Positions 1-12,010 of a stretch of DNA of 12,010 bases are shown here, in pieces; the stretch's first letter is position 1; every line of letters begins with the position of its first letter. The stretch comes from a virus, in IMG/VR virus record IMGVR_UViG_3300045988_152045, one strand, 5' to 3'. The position numbers were made by a program, and so were the translations under genes. Below the pieces are notes generated by a model. It saw only the letters and a program-made list of their open reading frames with translations. It was not told the origin of the DNA and did not search any database.

Positions 1-85
1 TGCATTATTTTGTGTTGATTTTGTGTCAATTTTTGTGCATTATTTTGTGCCAAATTTTTTGATGTTTTGGAAACGTTACCAATGT
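1..85. repeat. Left inverted terminal repeat (ITR-L), 85 bp
   Basis: Checked base by base: 1-85 is the perfect reverse complement of 11926-12010, and identity stops at 86/11925. It contains an internal duplication of the terminal 14-mer TGCATTATTTTGTG (1-14 and 36-49). It also has four TTTTGTG boxes at 8-14, 19-25, 31-37 and 43-49. Confidence 0.95.
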
Positions 86-159: not shown

Positions 160-187
160 TTGACAATAGAATATAAGGTGGTATAAT
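160..187 (+). promoter_or_regulatory. Sigma-A-type early promoter (P-left) with extended -10
   Basis: TTGACA (160-165), a 16-nt spacer, then TGgTATAAT (179-187). Phased A/T tracts upstream (TTGTTTAAAA, TTGTTTGAAAA and TATTTTAAAA at 123-153) resemble an UP element. The ATCTATTGAC, TATAATAG and AGAAAGAGAGGTA blocks are shared with the right-end promoter at 11481-11508. Confidence 0.75.
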
Positions 188-242: not shown

Positions 243-596
243 ATGAGTATTGCTAACAAGTACAACAAAAGTAACATTTTTAATTTCACTGCACCGAAAG
301 ATTTTGAGTATTATTCATTACACGATTTATTTAACAATAATGGTAAAGATTTTGTGTATGAAATTAAAGCAATGTATATTAACAAAAAATCAAAGTTCGG
401 TGAAAGTCCAGTAATTGCAACAACAAATTGTTTTGTAAATCTTCCTAGTCATTTAACAGATACAGTAAAAGAAATGATTAGAGATACAGAAGTTGTTGAC
501 GCTGTAAATGGCGGTCATTTAGGGTTTCAAATTTACACATACGAAACCAAAAACCGTAAAGAGTTATGCTATTCGGTTAATTGGGTTGATTGCTAA
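243..596 (+). CDS. Hypothetical early protein, 117 aa (function unknown; speculative ssDNA-binding candidate by size and position only)
   Basis: ATG at 243 follows the strong SD AGAAAGAGAGGTA (225-237). It is the first gene after the consensus promoter and is followed by a hairpin plus T-run. I recognise no motif. Confidence 0.7.
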   Translation: MSIANKYNKSNIFNFTAPKDFEYYSLHDLFNNNGKDFVYEIKAMYINKKSKFGESPVIATTNCFVNLPSHLTDTVKEMIRDTEVVDAVNGGHLGFQIYTYETKNRKELCYSVNWVDC

Positions 597-675: not shown

Positions 676-909
676 ATGAACGAATTTGATAAAAACAAAA
701 TCGGGTTATATTGTAAAAATTTTAGAGAACACATTTTACACGTTTCATTGATTGATTTTTGTAATGAAATGAATGAAAATTACAAGAATGTTTCAGCGTT
801 TGAAAATGGTCGAGCGAACAATATAAAGTATTTATTTCTTTATAAAAATATGTGTAAAAATGATAAAGAAAAAGAAATGTTTTGTACAGGGTTATTTGGT
901 GTGTTGTAA
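676..909 (+). CDS. Small XRE/Cro-like helix-turn-helix transcriptional regulator (77 aa from ATG 676)
   Basis: IGLYCKNFREHILHVSLIDFCNEMNENYKNVSAFENGRANNIKYL fits the XRE-family pattern: helix, then a (S/T)xxxhS..ENGr-type recognition helix. ATG 676 is preceded by AAAGGTGGTG. The track's GTG start at 619 lies inside the upstream terminator hairpin, so I prefer 676. Confidence 0.6.
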   Translation: MNEFDKNKIGLYCKNFREHILHVSLIDFCNEMNENYKNVSAFENGRANNIKYLFLYKNMCKNDKEKEMFCTGLFGVL

Positions 910-921
910 AGGGGGTAAAAT

Positions 922-1509
922 ATGTCAACAAAAATTGCAAGTGATGAATATAAAGCACTTAAAAAAGAAGTATCACGTATGGCAAGCATGGGAAACAAAA
1001 GATTGAAACGTCTTGAAACTAATGAATTAACAGATTTACCCTCTTATAAAAGTTGGGTTGACGGTGGTTCAATAAAGTTTAGCGTAAAAGGTAAAGACTA
1101 TAACCAATTACAAAGTGAATTTTGGCGGTTGAAACGGTTTCTTGATGATAAAACAAGTACGGTAAGAAGTGCAAACAAATTTTTGCGTGAAATGGCACAA
1201 AATACGGGTATTAAGTATAATGGTTTAGCAGATTTAAAAACAAAATCAAAACAGTTTTTTGAACTTGCTGAAAAGATTAAACAATATTATCAAAGTGCTA
1301 ATCAATCCGCTATTGCGTTAGACTATCAAAAAATATGGCAACAAATAAATACACAAATAAAGCAAGGTGTCATTAATATAGGCGGTACAGAAAGTACAGA
1401 AAGTATATTAAATAAGTATATTGCTGAAATGGATAAAGTACAACCCGTAGAAAATAAACAAGAGGGGTACAAAGATAATTCAAGTATTTACGATTTTATT
1501 CAGATTTAA
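922..1509 (+). CDS. Candidate terminal (priming) protein, 195 aa
   Basis: It lies immediately upstream of the protein-primed polymerase and is apparently translationally coupled to it, which matches the phi29 gene 3 - gene 2 order. The basic N-terminus SDEYKALKKEVSRMASMGNKRLKRL loosely recalls the phi29 TP N-terminal region (AEYARLVKNTKAKIAR, from memory). The C-terminal region is rich in Ser/Thr/Tyr. The call rests mainly on position. Confidence 0.5.
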   Translation: MSTKIASDEYKALKKEVSRMASMGNKRLKRLETNELTDLPSYKSWVDGGSIKFSVKGKDYNQLQSEFWRLKRFLDDKTSTVRSANKFLREMAQNTGIKYNGLADLKTKSKQFFELAEKIKQYYQSANQSAIALDYQKIWQQINTQIKQGVINIGGTESTESILNKYIAEMDKVQPVENKQEGYKDNSSIYDFIQI

Positions 1510-1511
1510 GG

Positions 1512-3659
1512 GTGGTGAGGTTTTTGTTAAATTATCAAGAAGTAGATTTTGAAAATATCGAATTTGAAACGGTTGCTAAATTTGATAAGCAAACAAAAAC
1601 CGTAAAACACTATATAAATATTGAATGTGGTTTTGATATTGAAACAACTTCAATGTTGATTGATGAAACACAAAAATTTGCGTTCATGTATGAGTGGACT
1701 TTTGGCATTAAAAACAAAGACTATATTTGTTATGGCAGAACGTGGGAACAATTCAAAGAGCTATGCAGTTATTTACAAGAAATTTATGAACTTTCACCCG
1801 ATAACAATATTTTAGTTGTTTACATACATAATTTTAGTTATGAGTTTCAGTTTATGCGTAAATACTTTGAATGGGAAAATGTTTTTGCAGTTGATGAACG
1901 TAAACCAATTAAGGCACTTTGTTCAATGGGTATTGAATTTAGAGATAGTTATATTTTATCGGGTTATTCTTTATCAAAACTTGCTGAAAATTTAGTTTCA
2001 CATAAAATTAAAAAATTGTATGGTGATTTAGATTATTCACTTATACGAACACATGAAACAGAATTAACAGAAAAAGAACTTGAATATTGTAACAATGATG
2101 TTGAAATAATACTTGATTATATCAATGAACAAATTGAACAATACGGAGATATAACAAAAATACCTATGACAAATACGGGTAGAGTTAGAAAGTTTGTAAA
2201 AGAAAAATGTTACTTTACAGACAAAAACCACAAGAAAAGTTCAAAAGGAAAATTTCAACGCTATAATGAGTTAATGAAAGAACTAACTTTAACAAGTGAT
2301 GAATATATTATGTTAAAGCGTTGTTTTATGGGTGGTTTCACACACGCAAGTATGTTATATAGTGAGCAACTTTTACACAACGTTGCAAGTATTGATTTTA
2401 CATCAAGTTATCCAGCGGTTATGTTGTCAGAAAAATTCCCTATGTCAAAGCCTATTCCAGTTGATTTAAAACGGGAAAATTTTTGGGAACTTTTAAAGAG
2501 TGATGATTATAGTATGATGTTTGACGTCAAATTTTACGGGTTGCATAGTAAATTAACGTTTGAAACATATTTAAGTGAAAGTAAATGTCAAATAAAAGAA
2601 AATGCAACAATAAACAATGGTCGTGTTTTTAGTGCTGATGTGGTTCAAACAACTATGACAAGTATTGATTTTAAAATAATGCAACAATGTTATAGTTGGG
2701 AACGGGTTGAGGTTGCTAATGTTTATAAGTTCTATATGCAGTATTTACCTAAAGCGATTTTAATGTCAATTCTTGAATTATACGGAAACAAAACAACGTT
2801 AAAAGGTGTAGAGGGTAAAGAGGTAGAATATTTGTTGTCAAAGGGTATGTTAAATAGTGTTTATGGAATGTGTGTTACTGATATTGTAAGAAATACAATA
2901 ACATACAATAACGGGTGGCAACTTGAAAAATTCACACAAGAAAGTATGCAAGAACAAATTGAAAAATACAATGACAGTAAAAACAGATTTTTATATTATG
3001 CGTGGGGTGTTTGGGTTACTGCATACGCACGTAAAAACTTATGGGTAGGTATTTTTAATATTGGTACTGATTATGTATATAGTGATACTGATAGTATAAA
3101 GTTGTTAAATTATGATAAACACAAACCGTTTATTGAGTGGTATAATAAGGATATTGAACGCAAGTTAAAATTGATGTGTGATTTTAGAAAAATTGATTTT
3201 AATTTGATGAAACCAAAAACAATAAAAGGTGTTGAAAAATTGATAGGTGTATGGGACTATGAGGGAATGTATGAAAATTTTAAAACTTTAGGTGCTAAAC
3301 GTTATCTTGTTTCAGAGGGTGGAAAACTACACTTGACAGTTGCAGGACTTTCAAAACAAAACGGAGTTGATTATATGTTAAAAATATGTAATAATAATAA
3401 CATTGATAAAGTTTTTGAAATTTTTAATGATGATTTATATATTCCCGAAATCGAAACGGGGAAAAATACTCATACTTATATTGATGAACCTATGACCGCA
3501 ATAGTTACAGATTATCAAGGTAATACAACAGAAATAACAAGTTTGTCAAGCGTGCATTTATCACCATGCGAATTTACTTTATCAATTAGTAAACAATATT
3601 CAAAGTTTTTACAAGATTTAAAGAACGGTTACTTGTTTACGGGTATTTCAGCAGAATAA
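1512..3659 (+). CDS. Family B DNA polymerase, protein-primed type (715 aa)
   Basis: Motifs read from the translation: Exo I FDIETT (D42/E44), Exo II YCNNDVEII, motif A IDFTSSYPAVM, motif B KGMLNSVYG, motif C YSDTDSIK, and a KxY-type GAKRYL. No in-frame ATG precedes Exo I, so the start must be non-AUG: GTG 1512, GTG 1515 or TTG 1524, next to the SD GGTGAGG at 1514-1520. The exact start is uncertain. Confidence 0.93.
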   Translation: MVRFLLNYQEVDFENIEFETVAKFDKQTKTVKHYINIECGFDIETTSMLIDETQKFAFMYEWTFGIKNKDYICYGRTWEQFKELCSYLQEIYELSPDNNILVVYIHNFSYEFQFMRKYFEWENVFAVDERKPIKALCSMGIEFRDSYILSGYSLSKLAENLVSHKIKKLYGDLDYSLIRTHETELTEKELEYCNNDVEIILDYINEQIEQYGDITKIPMTNTGRVRKFVKEKCYFTDKNHKKSSKGKFQRYNELMKELTLTSDEYIMLKRCFMGGFTHASMLYSEQLLHNVASIDFTSSYPAVMLSEKFPMSKPIPVDLKRENFWELLKSDDYSMMFDVKFYGLHSKLTFETYLSESKCQIKENATINNGRVFSADVVQTTMTSIDFKIMQQCYSWERVEVANVYKFYMQYLPKAILMSILELYGNKTTLKGVEGKEVEYLLSKGMLNSVYGMCVTDIVRNTITYNNGWQLEKFTQESMQEQIEKYNDSKNRFLYYAWGVWVTAYARKNLWVGIFNIGTDYVYSDTDSIKLLNYDKHKPFIEWYNKDIERKLKLMCDFRKIDFNLMKPKTIKGVEKLIGVWDYEGMYENFKTLGAKRYLVSEGGKLHLTVAGLSKQNGVDYMLKICNNNNIDKVFEIFNDDLYIPEIETGKNTHTYIDEPMTAIVTDYQGNTTEITSLSSVHLSPCEFTLSISKQYSKFLQDLKNGYLFTGISAE

Positions 3660-3705
3660 TAAAATGTTTCACGTGGAACAATTCAAAATGTTTCACGTGA
3701 AATAT
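3636..3705 (+). promoter_or_regulatory. Candidate late promoter with two tandem ATGTTTCACGTG boxes upstream of the packaging/structural genes
   Basis: The 15-nt direct repeat AAAATGTTTCACGTG occurs at 3661-3675 and 3685-3699, 24 bp apart. Box B, ATGTTTCACGTGAAATAT (3688-3705), is a near-perfect palindrome. Possible promoter elements are -35 TTTACG (3636-3641), an 18-nt spacer and -10 TAAAAT (3660-3665), ending at the same register relative to the box as at 8705-8710. The same box plus downstream block (TTATGAAAGTGAGGT) recurs at 8709-8745. Confidence 0.5.
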
Positions 3706-5033: not shown

Positions 5034-6275
5034 ATGGCAAAAGTTGACAAATATTTTTTAAGTGAAAACAACCGTACTTTTGATATTACAGACAAGAAAA
5101 GAAATACACAAAATAATATCAAGTATATGTTAAACCGTTCTAATATTATGTTTGAGTATAAAAATTTACCCGAAACTATACCACAAAAAGAACTTGAATT
5201 ACTGTTACAATGTAACGGGTTTGCAATCTTTACAAAAATTAACGGTGAATTTTACGTTGTTAATGGTGGTTTAGGCGGTGAGGGTGATGTGTATAACAAT
5301 CCTACTATTGCAACGGTTTCTATACCTTGCCTAAATTATAATGCTAATTTAACCATTGATACAGATTGTATTATTATACCTAATGATACATTGTTAATCG
5401 GGTTGTTACCTATGTATGAAAAATACTGTACTTTAATGACAGAAAATGAAATAACAATGTTTCTTGCTGATGTGAATAAAAGAATACAAACTTTGTTATC
5501 GGCAAATGATGATAATACCGTTGCAAGTGCTAAAAAATATTTAGACGATATTTTAAACGGTAAAATCGGGGTAATTGCTGAACAAAGATTGTTTGATAGT
5601 TTAAAGGTAAATAACGCAACTCAAACAAATAGTGTTTCATTGACAGATTTATTTGAGTATGAACAATACTTAAAAGCAAGTATGTATAATGAAATTGGTT
5701 TAAGTGCTAACTACAATATGAAACGTGAACGTTTAACAAGTGCGGAAGTTGAAACAAATACAGATAACTTATATCCGTTGGTTGATGATATGTTAAACAA
5801 CAGAAGAAAAGCACTTGAAAAAATCAATGAAATGTACGGTTTGAATATTGAAGTAGAGTTCAATAGTTCATGGGATTATAGAATTAAAAACGGTGAACCG
5901 ATAGAAACGGGTGAAACTTTTGATGAAACAGACGGTGAAACAGAGGAAACAAAGGAAACAGAGGAAACAAAGGAAACAGAGGAAACAGAGGAAACAGAGG
6001 AAACAGAGGAAACAGAGGAAACAGAGGAAACAGAGGAAACAGAGGAAGAAACAGAGGAAATAGAGGAAGAAACGGAAACAGAGGAAACAGAGGAAACAGA
6101 GGAAACAGAAACAGAGGAAACAGAAACAGAGGAAACAGAGGAAACAGAGGAAACAGAGGAAACAGAGGAAACAGAGGAAGAAACGGAAACAGAGGAAACA
6201 GAGGAAACAGAGGAAACAGAAACAGAGGAAACAGAAACAGAGGAAACCGAAAATGACAAAAAAGAAAATGATTAG
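5034..6275 (+). CDS. Portal / head-tail connector (phi29 gp10-like upper collar) with a poly(Glu-Thr) C-terminal extension (413 aa)
   Basis: MFEYKNLPETIPQKELELLL, GDVYNNPT, NMKRERLTSAEV and EKINEMYGLNIEVEF parallel remembered phi29 gp10 segments (FEWENLPPTINPSFLE, RDVYNQAT, KKERMVTDEV, EKINELYGLNVKVKF). Residues 302-406 are almost purely E/T. Confidence 0.8.
   Translation: MAKVDKYFLSENNRTFDITDKKRNTQNNIKYMLNRSNIMFEYKNLPETIPQKELELLLQCNGFAIFTKINGEFYVVNGGLGGEGDVYNNPTIATVSIPCLNYNANLTIDTDCIIIPNDTLLIGLLPMYEKYCTLMTENEITMFLADVNKRIQTLLSANDDNTVASAKKYLDDILNGKIGVIAEQRLFDSLKVNNATQTNSVSLTDLFEYEQYLKASMYNEIGLSANYNMKRERLTSAEVETNTDNLYPLVDDMLNNRRKALEKINEMYGLNIEVEFNSSWDYRIKNGEPIETGETFDETDGETEETKETEETKETEETEETEETEETEETEETEETEEETEEIEEETETEETEETEETETEETETEETEETEETEETEETEEETETEETEETEETETEETETEETENDKKEND
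5937..6251 (+). repeat. In-frame 9-bp tandem repeat (GAAACAGAG = Glu-Thr-Glu) array with a 111-bp higher-order duplication
   Basis: The 315 nt consist of GAAACAGAG units with minor variants (GAAACAAAG, extra GAA, GAAACAGAAACAGAG). The block GAGGAAGAAACGGAAACAGAGGAAACAGAGGAAACAGAGGAAACAGAAACAGAGGAAACAGAAACAGAGGAAAC occurs twice, starting at 6063 and 6174. Confidence 0.95.
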
Positions 6276-8705: not shown

Positions 8706-8726
8706 ATTATGTTTCACGTGAAACAT
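8683..8726 (+). promoter_or_regulatory. Candidate promoter (TTGAAC-16 nt-TATTAT) fused to a perfect 18-bp palindrome ATGTTTCACGTGAAACAT
   Basis: The elements are -35 TTGAAC (8683-8688) and -10 TATTAT (8705-8710). The perfect palindrome at 8709-8726, centred on CACGTG (8715-8720), would span the predicted +1. The downstream block TTTATGAAAGTGAGGTAA is conserved with 3705-3720. Confidence 0.5.
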
Positions 8727-8749: not shown

Positions 8750-9181
8750 ATGTTGATGAAATTATACACAACTAAAACCCCGAATAATACAATCGGGAAA
8801 GTTTTAGAAAATGAAACAGAATACAACATAAAATTTAAAGCACAAGCCGACAGAACAAAACCCGTTGTTGTTTTAATGAGTGAAACAATGATTGATTTTA
8901 ATTATGCTTATATTCCCGATTTTAACCGTTATTATTTTGTTGAAAGTATAGAGGTTACACCAAACAAAATTTATAATATTTCTTTACGTTGTGACGTGTT
9001 AGAAAGTTTTAAAAATGATATATTAGAAAGTAGTGGTTTTGTTAATCAGCAGACAACCCCGAACAAATATTATAATTCAGATTATCAAACGGAGATTAAA
9101 AAAGAAGTTGACGTTATAAAAAGTAACGTTACTTTAGATACAACAAAAAGCACAATTTTAGTAACAATAGGGGGTGTTTAA
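8750..9181 (+). CDS. Small tail protein resembling the N-terminal domain of the phi29 gp9 tail knob (143 aa)
   Basis: FNYAYIPDFNRYYFVESIEVTPNKIYNISLRCDVLESFKNDI aligns by eye with the remembered phi29 gp9 segment [46 protein letters not shown]. It is the first gene after the capsid terminator. This relies on memory only. Confidence 0.4.
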   Translation: MLMKLYTTKTPNNTIGKVLENETEYNIKFKAQADRTKPVVVLMSETMIDFNYAYIPDFNRYYFVESIEVTPNKIYNISLRCDVLESFKNDILESSGFVNQQTTPNKYYNSDYQTEIKKEVDVIKSNVTLDTTKSTILVTIGGV

Positions 9182-11480: not shown

Positions 11481-11508
11481 TTGACTTTAAAAACGTATCT
11501 GTTATAAT
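11481..11508 (+). promoter_or_regulatory. Sigma-A-type promoter (P-right) with extended -10, paralogous to P-left
   Basis: TTGACT (11481-11486), a 16-nt spacer, then TGtTATAAT (11500-11508), with an A/T-rich upstream region. The leader ends in the same AGAAAGAGAGGTA SD block as the left-end cassette. Confidence 0.75.
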
Positions 11509-11552: not shown

Positions 11553-11852
11553 ATGCAAACAACATTAAAAACAAAAGTAACAGTTGCAACAATCTATGTT
11601 CTATTTAGTAACAAAGAAAAAGCAAGTGAAACAAGACGTGTTTTATTCATTGGTTCACCAACAACAGCAGAGGTTAAAAAAGAGTTTGAAAAAACATTAG
11701 TTGCTGATGAAATCAAGAAAACAACAGTTTGTGAACTTGAAAAAATAAATCTTATTTGCGATTTAACAAGTGCTATGTTAGTTAAAACCGTTGAAGATTT
11801 TATCATTGATTGTGCTAAAACAGTTACAGAGTTTGAAAGCACAATAATTTAA
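11553..11852 (+). CDS. Hypothetical protein, 99 aa, in an insulated right-end cassette
   Basis: ATG 11553 is preceded by AAGAAAGAGAGGTAA. It has its own consensus promoter and its own terminator. No recognisable motif. Confidence 0.7.
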   Translation: MQTTLKTKVTVATIYVLFSNKEKASETRRVLFIGSPTTAEVKKEFEKTLVADEIKKTTVCELEKINLICDLTSAMLVKTVEDFIIDCAKTVTEFESTII

Positions 11853-11882
11853 TAATCAAAATACAACTAAATAAACATTTAA

Positions 11883-11910
11883 AGAGTGATTGAAAATATC
11901 ACTCTTTTTT
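11883..11910 (+). terminator. Rho-independent terminator at the right genome end
   Basis: An 8-bp perfect stem AGAGTGAT (11883-11890) / ATCACTCT (11898-11905) with a 7-nt loop, running into TTTTTT (11905-11910). It sits just inside the right ITR. Confidence 0.85.
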
Positions 11911-11925
11911 GTTGCATTTTTATAA

Positions 11926-12010
11926 ACATTGGTAACGTTTCCAAAACATCAAAAAATTTGGCACAAAATAATGCACAAAAATTGACACAAAATCAACACA
12001 AAATAATGCA
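11926..12010. repeat. Right inverted terminal repeat (ITR-R), 85 bp
   Basis: Perfect reverse complement of 1-85. Confidence 0.95.

Follow-up and report, generated by a model that had tools for sequence, protein, structure and literature searches.

The window, that is, the whole stretch of 12,010 nt of viral DNA analyzed here, has a GC content of 29.6%, with every predicted gene on the + strand. Its genes specify a protein-primed family B DNA polymerase for replication, a connector and a major capsid protein along with a phi29-type packaging ATPase, and, for lysis, a holin and an endolysin; among the window proteins, PF03175, PF25622, PF05352 and PF05894 all scored above the Pfam cut-offs, and the PHROG matches agreed. 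The window represents almost the whole genome of a tiny (~12.3 kb) phi29-like podovirus of the human gut, which replicates by protein priming and is kin to the Astrithrvirus group. As a megablast of the window against phage genomes returned one 4% match at most, the relatives were gathered via the polymerase protein. The nearest cultured relatives are 11–12-kb phages of the Astrithrvirus group, namely Salmonella phages astrithr and Astrid, Pectobacterium phage DU_PP_III, Acinetobacter phage Phanie and Enterobacter phage Entb_47, with polymerases 54–58% identical to that of the window. Closer uncultured relatives, with polymerases 63–97% identical, came from gut and other metagenomes. The same virus has also been assembled from a human gut sample (ENA contig ERZ919663 k127_42581), and exact-pattern scans of IMG/VR with two patterns from the inverted terminal repeat (ITR) gave no match. 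Since the endolysin carries Glucosaminidase and CW_7 domains, its sequence suggests a Gram-positive gut bacterium as the host. An Rfam scan of the whole window yielded no family match (one chance-level match, E 0.29), and thus no sign of a phi29-type packaging RNA. In the literature, we found no description of the ITR architecture of this phage group. The features discussed below are collected in Table 1.

Table 1. Coordinates of the terminal repeats, boxes, promoters and genes considered in this study (positions in the 12,010-nt window).
Feature	Position	Strand	Evidence or remark
Left ITR, inner 85 nt, cut copy	1–85	+	100% reverse complement of 11926–12010; longer in relatives
Box A, TTTTGTGTTGA	8–18	+	Sequence and spacing
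Box B, TTTTGTGTCAA, consensus box, commonest form in relatives	19–29	+	TRF consensus
Box C, TTTTTGTGCATTA, closes the 35-bp A+B+C unit	30–42	+	Tandem repeat in L031
Box D, TTTTGTGCCAAA	43–54	+	Sequence and spacing
Degenerate box E, TTTTTTGATG	55–64	+	Conserved in L031, L050 and L033
Inner ITR element, TTTTGGAAACGTTACCAATGT, includes the near-palindrome at 69–80	65–85	+	Like (G)AAACGTG / CACGTGAAAC at the ITR inner edge of relatives
Left early promoter, TTGACA-16-TATAAT with upstream TG, outside the ITR	160–187	+	12/12 consensus matches
117-aa early protein, possible OB-fold ssDNA-binding protein	243–596	+	AF2 pLDDT 86.7; clade-wide
77-aa XRE/Cro-type helix-turn-helix protein, rival candidate binder (boxes or CACGTG palindrome)	676–909	+	Pfam matches of the family
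195-aa putative terminal protein	922–1509	+	Gene order as in phi29 (genes 3 and 2); polymerase gene follows directly
Protein-primed family B DNA polymerase	1512–3659	+	PF03175 E 4.6e-12; PHROG 1907 E 1e-75
Right-end early promoter, TTGACT-16-TATAAT with upstream TG	11481–11508	+	Like the left promoter region
99-aa acidic protein, candidate p6-like dsDNA-binding origin organizer	11553–11852	+	Weak fold match to p6; pLDDT 61
Intrinsic terminator, downstream of the 99-aa gene and ahead of the right ITR	11881–11907	+	Simple terminator scan
Right ITR copy, likewise cut	11926–12010	-	L032 ends in the reverse complement of the 42 nt that open L031

The confident model of the 117-aa protein gave only weak Foldseek matches, to SSB and RPA70N OB folds (all E > 0.19), on which the protein may be a phage single-stranded-DNA-binding protein analogous to phi29 p5. 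The 195-aa ORF is conserved in all relatives and matched no protein family in Pfam or PHROG; its position directly upstream of the polymerase gene, hence synteny, is the reason for regarding it as the putative terminal protein. The early promoter regions at the two ends of the genome (142–202 and 11463–11523) both point rightward and share 72% identity over 61 nt. Elsewhere in the genome, the C-terminus of the connector (5883–6273) contains an acidic, Glu/Thr-rich repeat of 9-bp period and GAAACAGAG type with an internal duplication of ~111 bp. The ERZ919663 contig has 111 bp less internal sequence than the window, and we suspect that this difference in length lies in the connector repeat.

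ITRs bound the linear genome. The repeat is exact over 85 nt in the window; in the longer assembly of this virus it measures 127 nt, and in that of a near-identical strain at least 200 nt. A sequence-only reading had described the architecture of the window ends, and its basic observations were reproduced: positions 1–85 are the exact reverse complement of 11926–12010, with the first mismatch at position 86; the 14-mer TGCATTATTTTGTG occurs at positions 1 and 36 only; the + strand has TTTTGTG at 8, 19, 31 and 43, so that successive copies are 11, 12 and 12 nt apart; and CCAAA (50–54) and TTTGG (66–70) are separated by N11, with the near-palindrome GGAAACGTTACC at 69–80 being palindromic at 10 of 12 positions. 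Just one further + strand copy of TTTTGTG is found in the 12 kb, at 350, and at the shuffle-derived rate, the P of finding four on the same strand in a stretch of 49 nt is ~3e-9. What had been taken for a degenerate 35-bp duplication of the end (1–35 and 36–70) is really part of a tandem repeat severed by the contig end. The repeat is perfect: in the longer assembly L031, its 35-bp unit of three boxes, TTTTGTGTTGA-TTTTGTGTCAA-TTTTTGTGCATTA, recurs 2.2 times with 100% matches; the TRF consensus unit reads AATTTTGTGTC. The window opens with the last 7 nt of the first unit, which makes the 14-mer nothing but the unit junction met twice. The window carries only the innermost four to five boxes together with the inner element.

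Two other assignments within this region were rejected. The CCAAA-N11-TTTGG arrangement was considered as a functional inverted repeat and dismissed because near-identical strains are without it, namely L050 (94% identical) and L033 (polymerase 97% identical). The boxes were also considered as promoters, since the reverse-strand TTGACAC resembles a -35 element, but neither a -10 partner nor an outward gene accompanies it, and the real promoter lies at 160–187.

The comparison with other assemblies demonstrated that the ends of the window are not the ends of the virus. At its right end, the contig ERZ919663 k127_42581 is identical to the window over 3458 nt; at its left end, it differs at 2 of 3596 nt. 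It runs 42 nt outward past the window ends on both sides with AAAAATGTGACAAATTTTGTGTTGATTTTGTGTCAATTTTTG; the 14-mer that had been called terminal is therefore internal in this contig, as is window position 1 itself. The ITR of ERZ919663 k127_42581 is 127 nt long, which equals its assembly k-mer, from which we infer that this contig, too, was cut at a graph branch. In L050 (94% DNA identity; first protein 97% identical), the end sequence extends over at least 200 nt, of which the inner 32 nt are identical to window positions 54–85 and the outer tip is CCCCCTCCCCCCTCTG, with C-runs. The left end of L034 (polymerase 89% identical) starts with GGGTTATCCCCCCCCTCCCCCC / GGGTTATCCCCCCCCTCCCCCCTCTG, and its terminal non-coding sequence measures ~213 nt up to the point that forms the ITR boundary in the close relative L012. 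In an alignment of the ends, window position 1 falls at column 134, so that ~127–133 nt are missing from each window end. These alignments show a true ITR of probable length ~210 bp, starting ~127 nt beyond window position 1, within which the contig stops. The earlier supposition that terminal bases are missing was right as to their absence and wrong in expecting only a few, as the loss amounts to ~127 nt per end. As the assembly cut falls inside the ITR, the odd 14-mer at the tip is an artefact.

More generally, metagenomic contigs with ITRs may look "complete" yet be cut within the repeat, and because the cuts fall within ITRs, tip features of such contigs should not be taken as replication termini. 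Public "complete" genomes of the group (L006 NC_048862, L005 MK080312, L001 PV067697 and L004 OZ195715) also appear to be truncated or mis-set at their ends. The astrithr record retains an ITR remnant of only 18 nt; the Astrid record has an 84-nt ITR without the GGG/C-rich tip; the ends of the Entb_47 record are offset by 5 nt and the GGG tip is absent; and the record of Vibrio phage K58 g2 is circularly permuted, with its start inside the packaging-ATPase gene.

The complete ends of both close and distant relatives begin with GGG, in contrast to window position 1, which reads TGCA and has no reiteration. Contigs opening with GGGTTATCC, GGGATATCC or GGGTATATCC are those of the cultured phages Phanie (171-bp ITR) and DU_PP_III (219-bp ITR) and of two metagenomes, and since these four divergent contigs start exactly there, GGG is taken as the physical end. 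It belongs to a terminal module composed of GGG-(T/A)TAT-CC, two C-runs and a further CCCC ~33–36 nt in, which is common to Phanie, DU_PP_III and the metagenomic L028, L041 and L040, is found in truncated form in L015, L022, L021 and Entb_47, and occupies positions 1–40 of L034, L002, L003 and L028. The module links gut relatives of low GC content to phages infecting Gram-negative bacteria, in spite of a polymerase identity of only ~55%. Therein lies its potential importance, as GGG(T/A)TATCC with its C-runs would be a conserved minimal-origin motif common to phages that infect Gram-negative bacteria and to those with presumed Gram-positive gut hosts. The module also leaves a very G-rich 3' template end (GGGGGGAGGGGGGGG).

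Because the ends of complete relatives begin with GGG, the 3' end of the template should be CCC. The real ends in this clade thus appear to open with a simple reiteration suited to sliding-back, a statement that for the tip of the present strain is inferred from its relatives. Sliding-back reiterations have been reported as 3'-TTT in phi29 and 3'-CCCC in PRD1 (PMC5175343), and initiation in the present virus would likewise take place at the template 3'-CCC (3'-CCCAATAGG) by sliding-back, as in PRD1 and phi29. The sequence-only reading had suggested a different route, in which TGCA is the true end and the polymerase jumps back from the 14-mer copy 35 nt inward. The exact duplication of the 14-mer in this contig is the sole point in favor of that route, which we regard as extremely improbable and already contradicted: position 1 lies inside a longer assembly of the same virus, the 14-mer spans the junction of an internal tandem repeat, the relatives end in GGG, and the known back-translocations cover only 1–3 nt on directly adjacent reiterations (PMC5175343).

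Complete ITRs contain ~8–14 boxes, each made up of an A/T tract and a TGTGTCA-type core, and in the relatives the layout proceeds from the terminal module through a short spacer and the box array, ~60–200 nt from the tip, to an inner GAAACGT(G) element. Box starts are 11–13 nt apart in the window, L031, L034, L011, L017, L019 and L041, and the autocorrelation peaked at 11–12, 24 and 36 bp in 10 of 10 arrays (the window and nine related ones; best z 3.5–8.8). The phasing claimed for the boxes is therefore real, but it is not that of one helical turn, since the period is 11–12 bp (35/3 = 11.7; mean 11.7–12), with harmonics at 24 and 36 bp, versus 10.5 bp. Arrays of the same 11–12/24-bp period were observed in relatives with polymerases 63–97% identical, and the core TGTGTCA (complement TGACACA) persists across lineages with polymerases down to 63–70% identical. 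L017, L019 and L041 carry the core as its reverse complement (TTTTGACACAA). As the T-tract of L017 and L019 nevertheless keeps its polarity, the tract and the core seem to be determinants in their own right. More distant lineages carry other ITR repeats, (G/T)TAAAGTG and GGACAGCCAT. On the evidence of these comparisons across relatives, the phased 11–12-bp box array is real and conserved.

Of the two features for which a comparison of ITRs among relatives had been proposed, the phasing of the boxes held and the duplication of the 14-mer did not, as it is absent in the near-identical L050 and L033. Neither strain has the 35-bp duplication, and both carry runs of TTTTGTGTCAA boxes instead, indicating that the array expands and contracts like any tandem repeat. 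In a wedge model, the strongest predicted bends fell on the arrays, reaching 51–53 degrees in L050 and L034 and 28–33 degrees in the window and L031; by the same model, the 99th percentile of the predicted bend in the whole window was 34 degrees and the maximum 43.

Concerning a protein that could bind the array, the 99-aa protein encoded next to the right ITR attracted attention. It is specified by a single gene with its own early-type promoter and terminator, and from the position of the latter, transcription is predicted to stop before the right ITR. A Foldseek search of its AlphaFold model against the PDB placed the phi29 p6 structures 8pw4_A and 8pw2 at ranks 1 and 2 of 350,542 chains. 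The match to 8pw4_A (E 0.12, TM 0.38/0.44, 83 aligned columns) and that to 8pw2 (E 0.77) are weak and were obtained with a model of low confidence (pLDDT 61), for which all fold matches had E > 0.08. Weak matches of the same model in BFVD include three proteins annotated as p6 or double-strand-DNA-binding. Because the p6 fold has been reported to lack structural relatives (PMC10899789), the ranking is worth attention, though it is not significant.

Sequence comparison of the 99-aa protein with p6 was negative by hhalign with two alignments, by a Pfam scan of the family members and by a PDB profile search, and the family matched neither PF17548 nor the p6 sequence. A word-index search retrieved close homologues only, and an exhaustive HMM search added only seven remote relatives. 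Among the array-bearing relatives, a homologue was detectable in some only (L012, L017 and L019), and tblastn found none in L013 and L015. L013 does have a syntenic 89-aa ORF, whose product gave collinear alignments, at E 1.2e-3 to the 99-aa family and at E 0.034 to p6.

In phi29, a p6 dimer binds every 24 bp with a monomer contact every 12 bp, the DNA is wrapped into a right-handed superhelix with a turn of 63 bp, and p6, which nucleates 46–125 bp from the ends, activates initiation (PMC10899789). The period of the array equals this 12/24-bp contact period. The ITR of phi29, on the other hand, has only 6 bp and no explicit repeats, and p6 reads bendability, not sequence (PMC10899789). The conserved core of the boxes poorly fits such a sequence-independent mode and better fits a sequence-specific reader.

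The other small protein to be considered is the 77-aa protein. Of the 27 members of its family, 15 match Pfam HTH_19 (best E 1e-4) and 11 match HTH_3, the stretch SAFENGRANNI-Y is invariant, and homologues occur in nearly all relatives, including the Gram-negative-infecting ones. The protein of the window itself had no Pfam match even at E = 10; its PDB profile search gave a designed HTH protein as the best match (E 0.27), and hhalign against SinR returned a probability of 2.6%. With moderate confidence, the family matches point to a protein of the HTH type. A terminator-like hairpin (618–649), with a 12-pair stem followed by a T-run, is located between the 117-aa and 77-aa genes. Since this hairpin sits at the very start of the alternative 96-aa reading with its GTG start, the ATG at 676 is favored as the start of the 77-aa protein.

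A palindrome, TGTTTCACGTGAAACA, occurs three times in the window (3665–3680, 3689–3704 and 8710–8725) versus 0.21 expected. A TTATGAAAGTGAGGT ribosome-binding region comes after each of the three, which lie upstream of the packaging-ATPase gene and the gene at 8750. The palindrome is kept directly after the polymerase gene in 7–8 relatives (including L012, L013, L015, L019, L033, L034 and L041) and is also found at the inner edge of the ITR in L017 and L019. We regard it as a probable operator or late-promoter element of the early/late boundary, or else as a weak terminator there.

Based on these data, we propose that the array nucleates a p6-like complex of the 99-aa protein, and we give this reading, in a figure that jointly covers the truncation of the ITR, a probability of roughly 0.55. 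The array would be origin-proximal, intrinsically curved DNA, phased at 12/24 bp, on which a multimer of a small phage dsDNA-binding protein is nucleated, the likeliest binder being the 99-aa protein (11553–11852). The complex would wrap the DNA as phi29 p6 does, with one monomer per 12 bp in a right-handed superhelix, and right-handed wrapping of the p6 type would require a signal of 12 bp rather than 10.5 bp. Such wrapping could help to open the end for the complex of terminal protein and polymerase, and possibly regulate the adjacent early promoters. The sequence-only reading had already seen in the boxes a candidate site for an origin-organizing protein, possibly the product of a small orphan gene; the conservation across relatives, the predicted curvature and the p6-like period speak for this idea, and so, weakly, does the p6 fold match of the 99-aa protein. 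Against the 99-aa protein as the binder count its low-confidence model, the negative sequence comparisons with p6 and the detection of homologues in some array-bearing relatives only. An extension of the proposal to the whole clade, in which 12-bp iteron arrays in long ITRs are read by a highly diverged protein of the p6 fold through sequence-guided wrapping, is put forward more tentatively, and we hold it to be rather doubtful.

Other explanations of the array have to be weighed against this proposal. The boxes may be iteron-like, sequence-specific sites for the 77-aa HTH protein, serving origin control or early-promoter repression without p6-like wrapping. The persistence of the TGTGTCA/TGACACA core in lineages whose polymerases are only 63–70% identical would be expected under this explanation, as would its occurrence in either orientation depending on the lineage, which is the behavior of a discrete protein site; the family is moreover present in nearly all relatives, and its putative recognition region SAFENGRANN is invariant. 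Small XRE dimers, however, normally read palindromes, and TGTTTCACGTGAAACA, at the early/late boundary and at the inner edge of some ITRs, offers a better palindromic target. The Gram-negative-infecting relatives retain the HTH homologue, yet their ITR repeats are quite different, and the HTH assignment itself is moderate, given that the 77-aa protein of the window has no Pfam match. For these reasons, we consider binding of the boxes by the 77-aa protein to be unlikely.

It is less likely still that the array acts as naked DNA, with phased A/T tracts forming a static bend or an easily melted region that assists host factors or the complex of terminal protein and polymerase, and to which no dedicated phage protein binds. 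That the strongest predicted curvature falls on the arrays, that A(n)T(n)-type tracts recur every 11–12 bp, and that the number and order of boxes vary among near-identical strains, so that the exact sequence would not be critical, all agree with such a role. A period of 11.7–12 bp, however, is out of phase with 10.5-bp B-DNA and would give a superhelical rather than a planar bend, as a wrapping protein needs, and the conservation of the core outside the tracts is left unexplained. The variation in copy number and arrangement among strains that are 94–100% identical, the 35-bp duplication included, might even suggest neutral, slippage-prone AT-rich tandem DNA without function, maintained by repeated duplication. 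This we judge to be the less probable of the two, since many lineages, with polymerase identities as low as 63%, have this period and core in the same place of the ITR, some of them with the core orientation changed, and since 100–150 bp of junk at each end would hardly be expected in a 12-kb genome that has so little non-coding DNA.

If sequence-guided wrapping by a diverged protein of the p6 fold is real, the boxes would constitute a defined nucleation code for a p6-type protein, whose targeting in phi29 has been described only as "bendability". The combination of a conserved origin motif, a naturally variable array of 12-bp boxes and a candidate p6-like protein may provide a compact test system for the way in which origin-organizing proteins nucleate at protein-primed origins.

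The Astrithrvirus-group phages share with the window the gene order and the genome size, polymerases 54–58% and capsid proteins 56–61% identical, and an ITR that opens with the GGG(T/A)TATCC and C-run module. They differ in having Gram-negative hosts and 36–40% GC, as against 29.6% in the window; the internal repeats of their ITRs are unrelated in sequence to those of the window; and in Astrid, astrithr and Phanie, the right-end genes lie on the opposite strand, unlike those of the window. In plasmid R1, the 11-bp repeats of parC form an iteron- or centromere-like array that is bound cooperatively by the small DNA-binding protein ParR. The window array resembles it in its tandem direct repeats of ~11 bp, variable in number and suited to cooperative, filament-like binding; it differs in lying in a replication ITR, not a partition site, and no ribbon-helix-helix or Rep-type protein was identified.

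With respect to the termini, the 3'-CCC template reiteration of the ends of this clade fits stepwise sliding-back, comparable to the 3'-CCCC of PRD1 (PMC5175343), although PRD1 is a tectivirus with a 110-bp ITR. Jumping-back of the adenovirus type needs positions 1–3 to equal positions 4–6; here, the repeated sequence comes only 35 nt further in, and position 1 of the window is not an end. Finally, the virus shares with the p6 system of phi29 a protein-primed podoviral genome, a 12/24-bp signal with predicted curvature within ~50–200 bp of the ends, and a small acidic early protein, which in the present case has p6 as its best, albeit weak, PDB fold match. It is set apart from phi29 by its ITR of ~210 bp with overt 11–12-bp iterons and a conserved core, and by a candidate 99-aa protein that has no detectable p6 sequence similarity and whose gene is placed at the right end, not in the left early operon. 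As a defined core, TGTGTCA or TGACACA, is retained in the boxes from lineage to lineage, the preference of p6 for bendability over sequence is not seen here, and a p6-like binder in this virus would be a sequence-guided variant of the phi29 protein.
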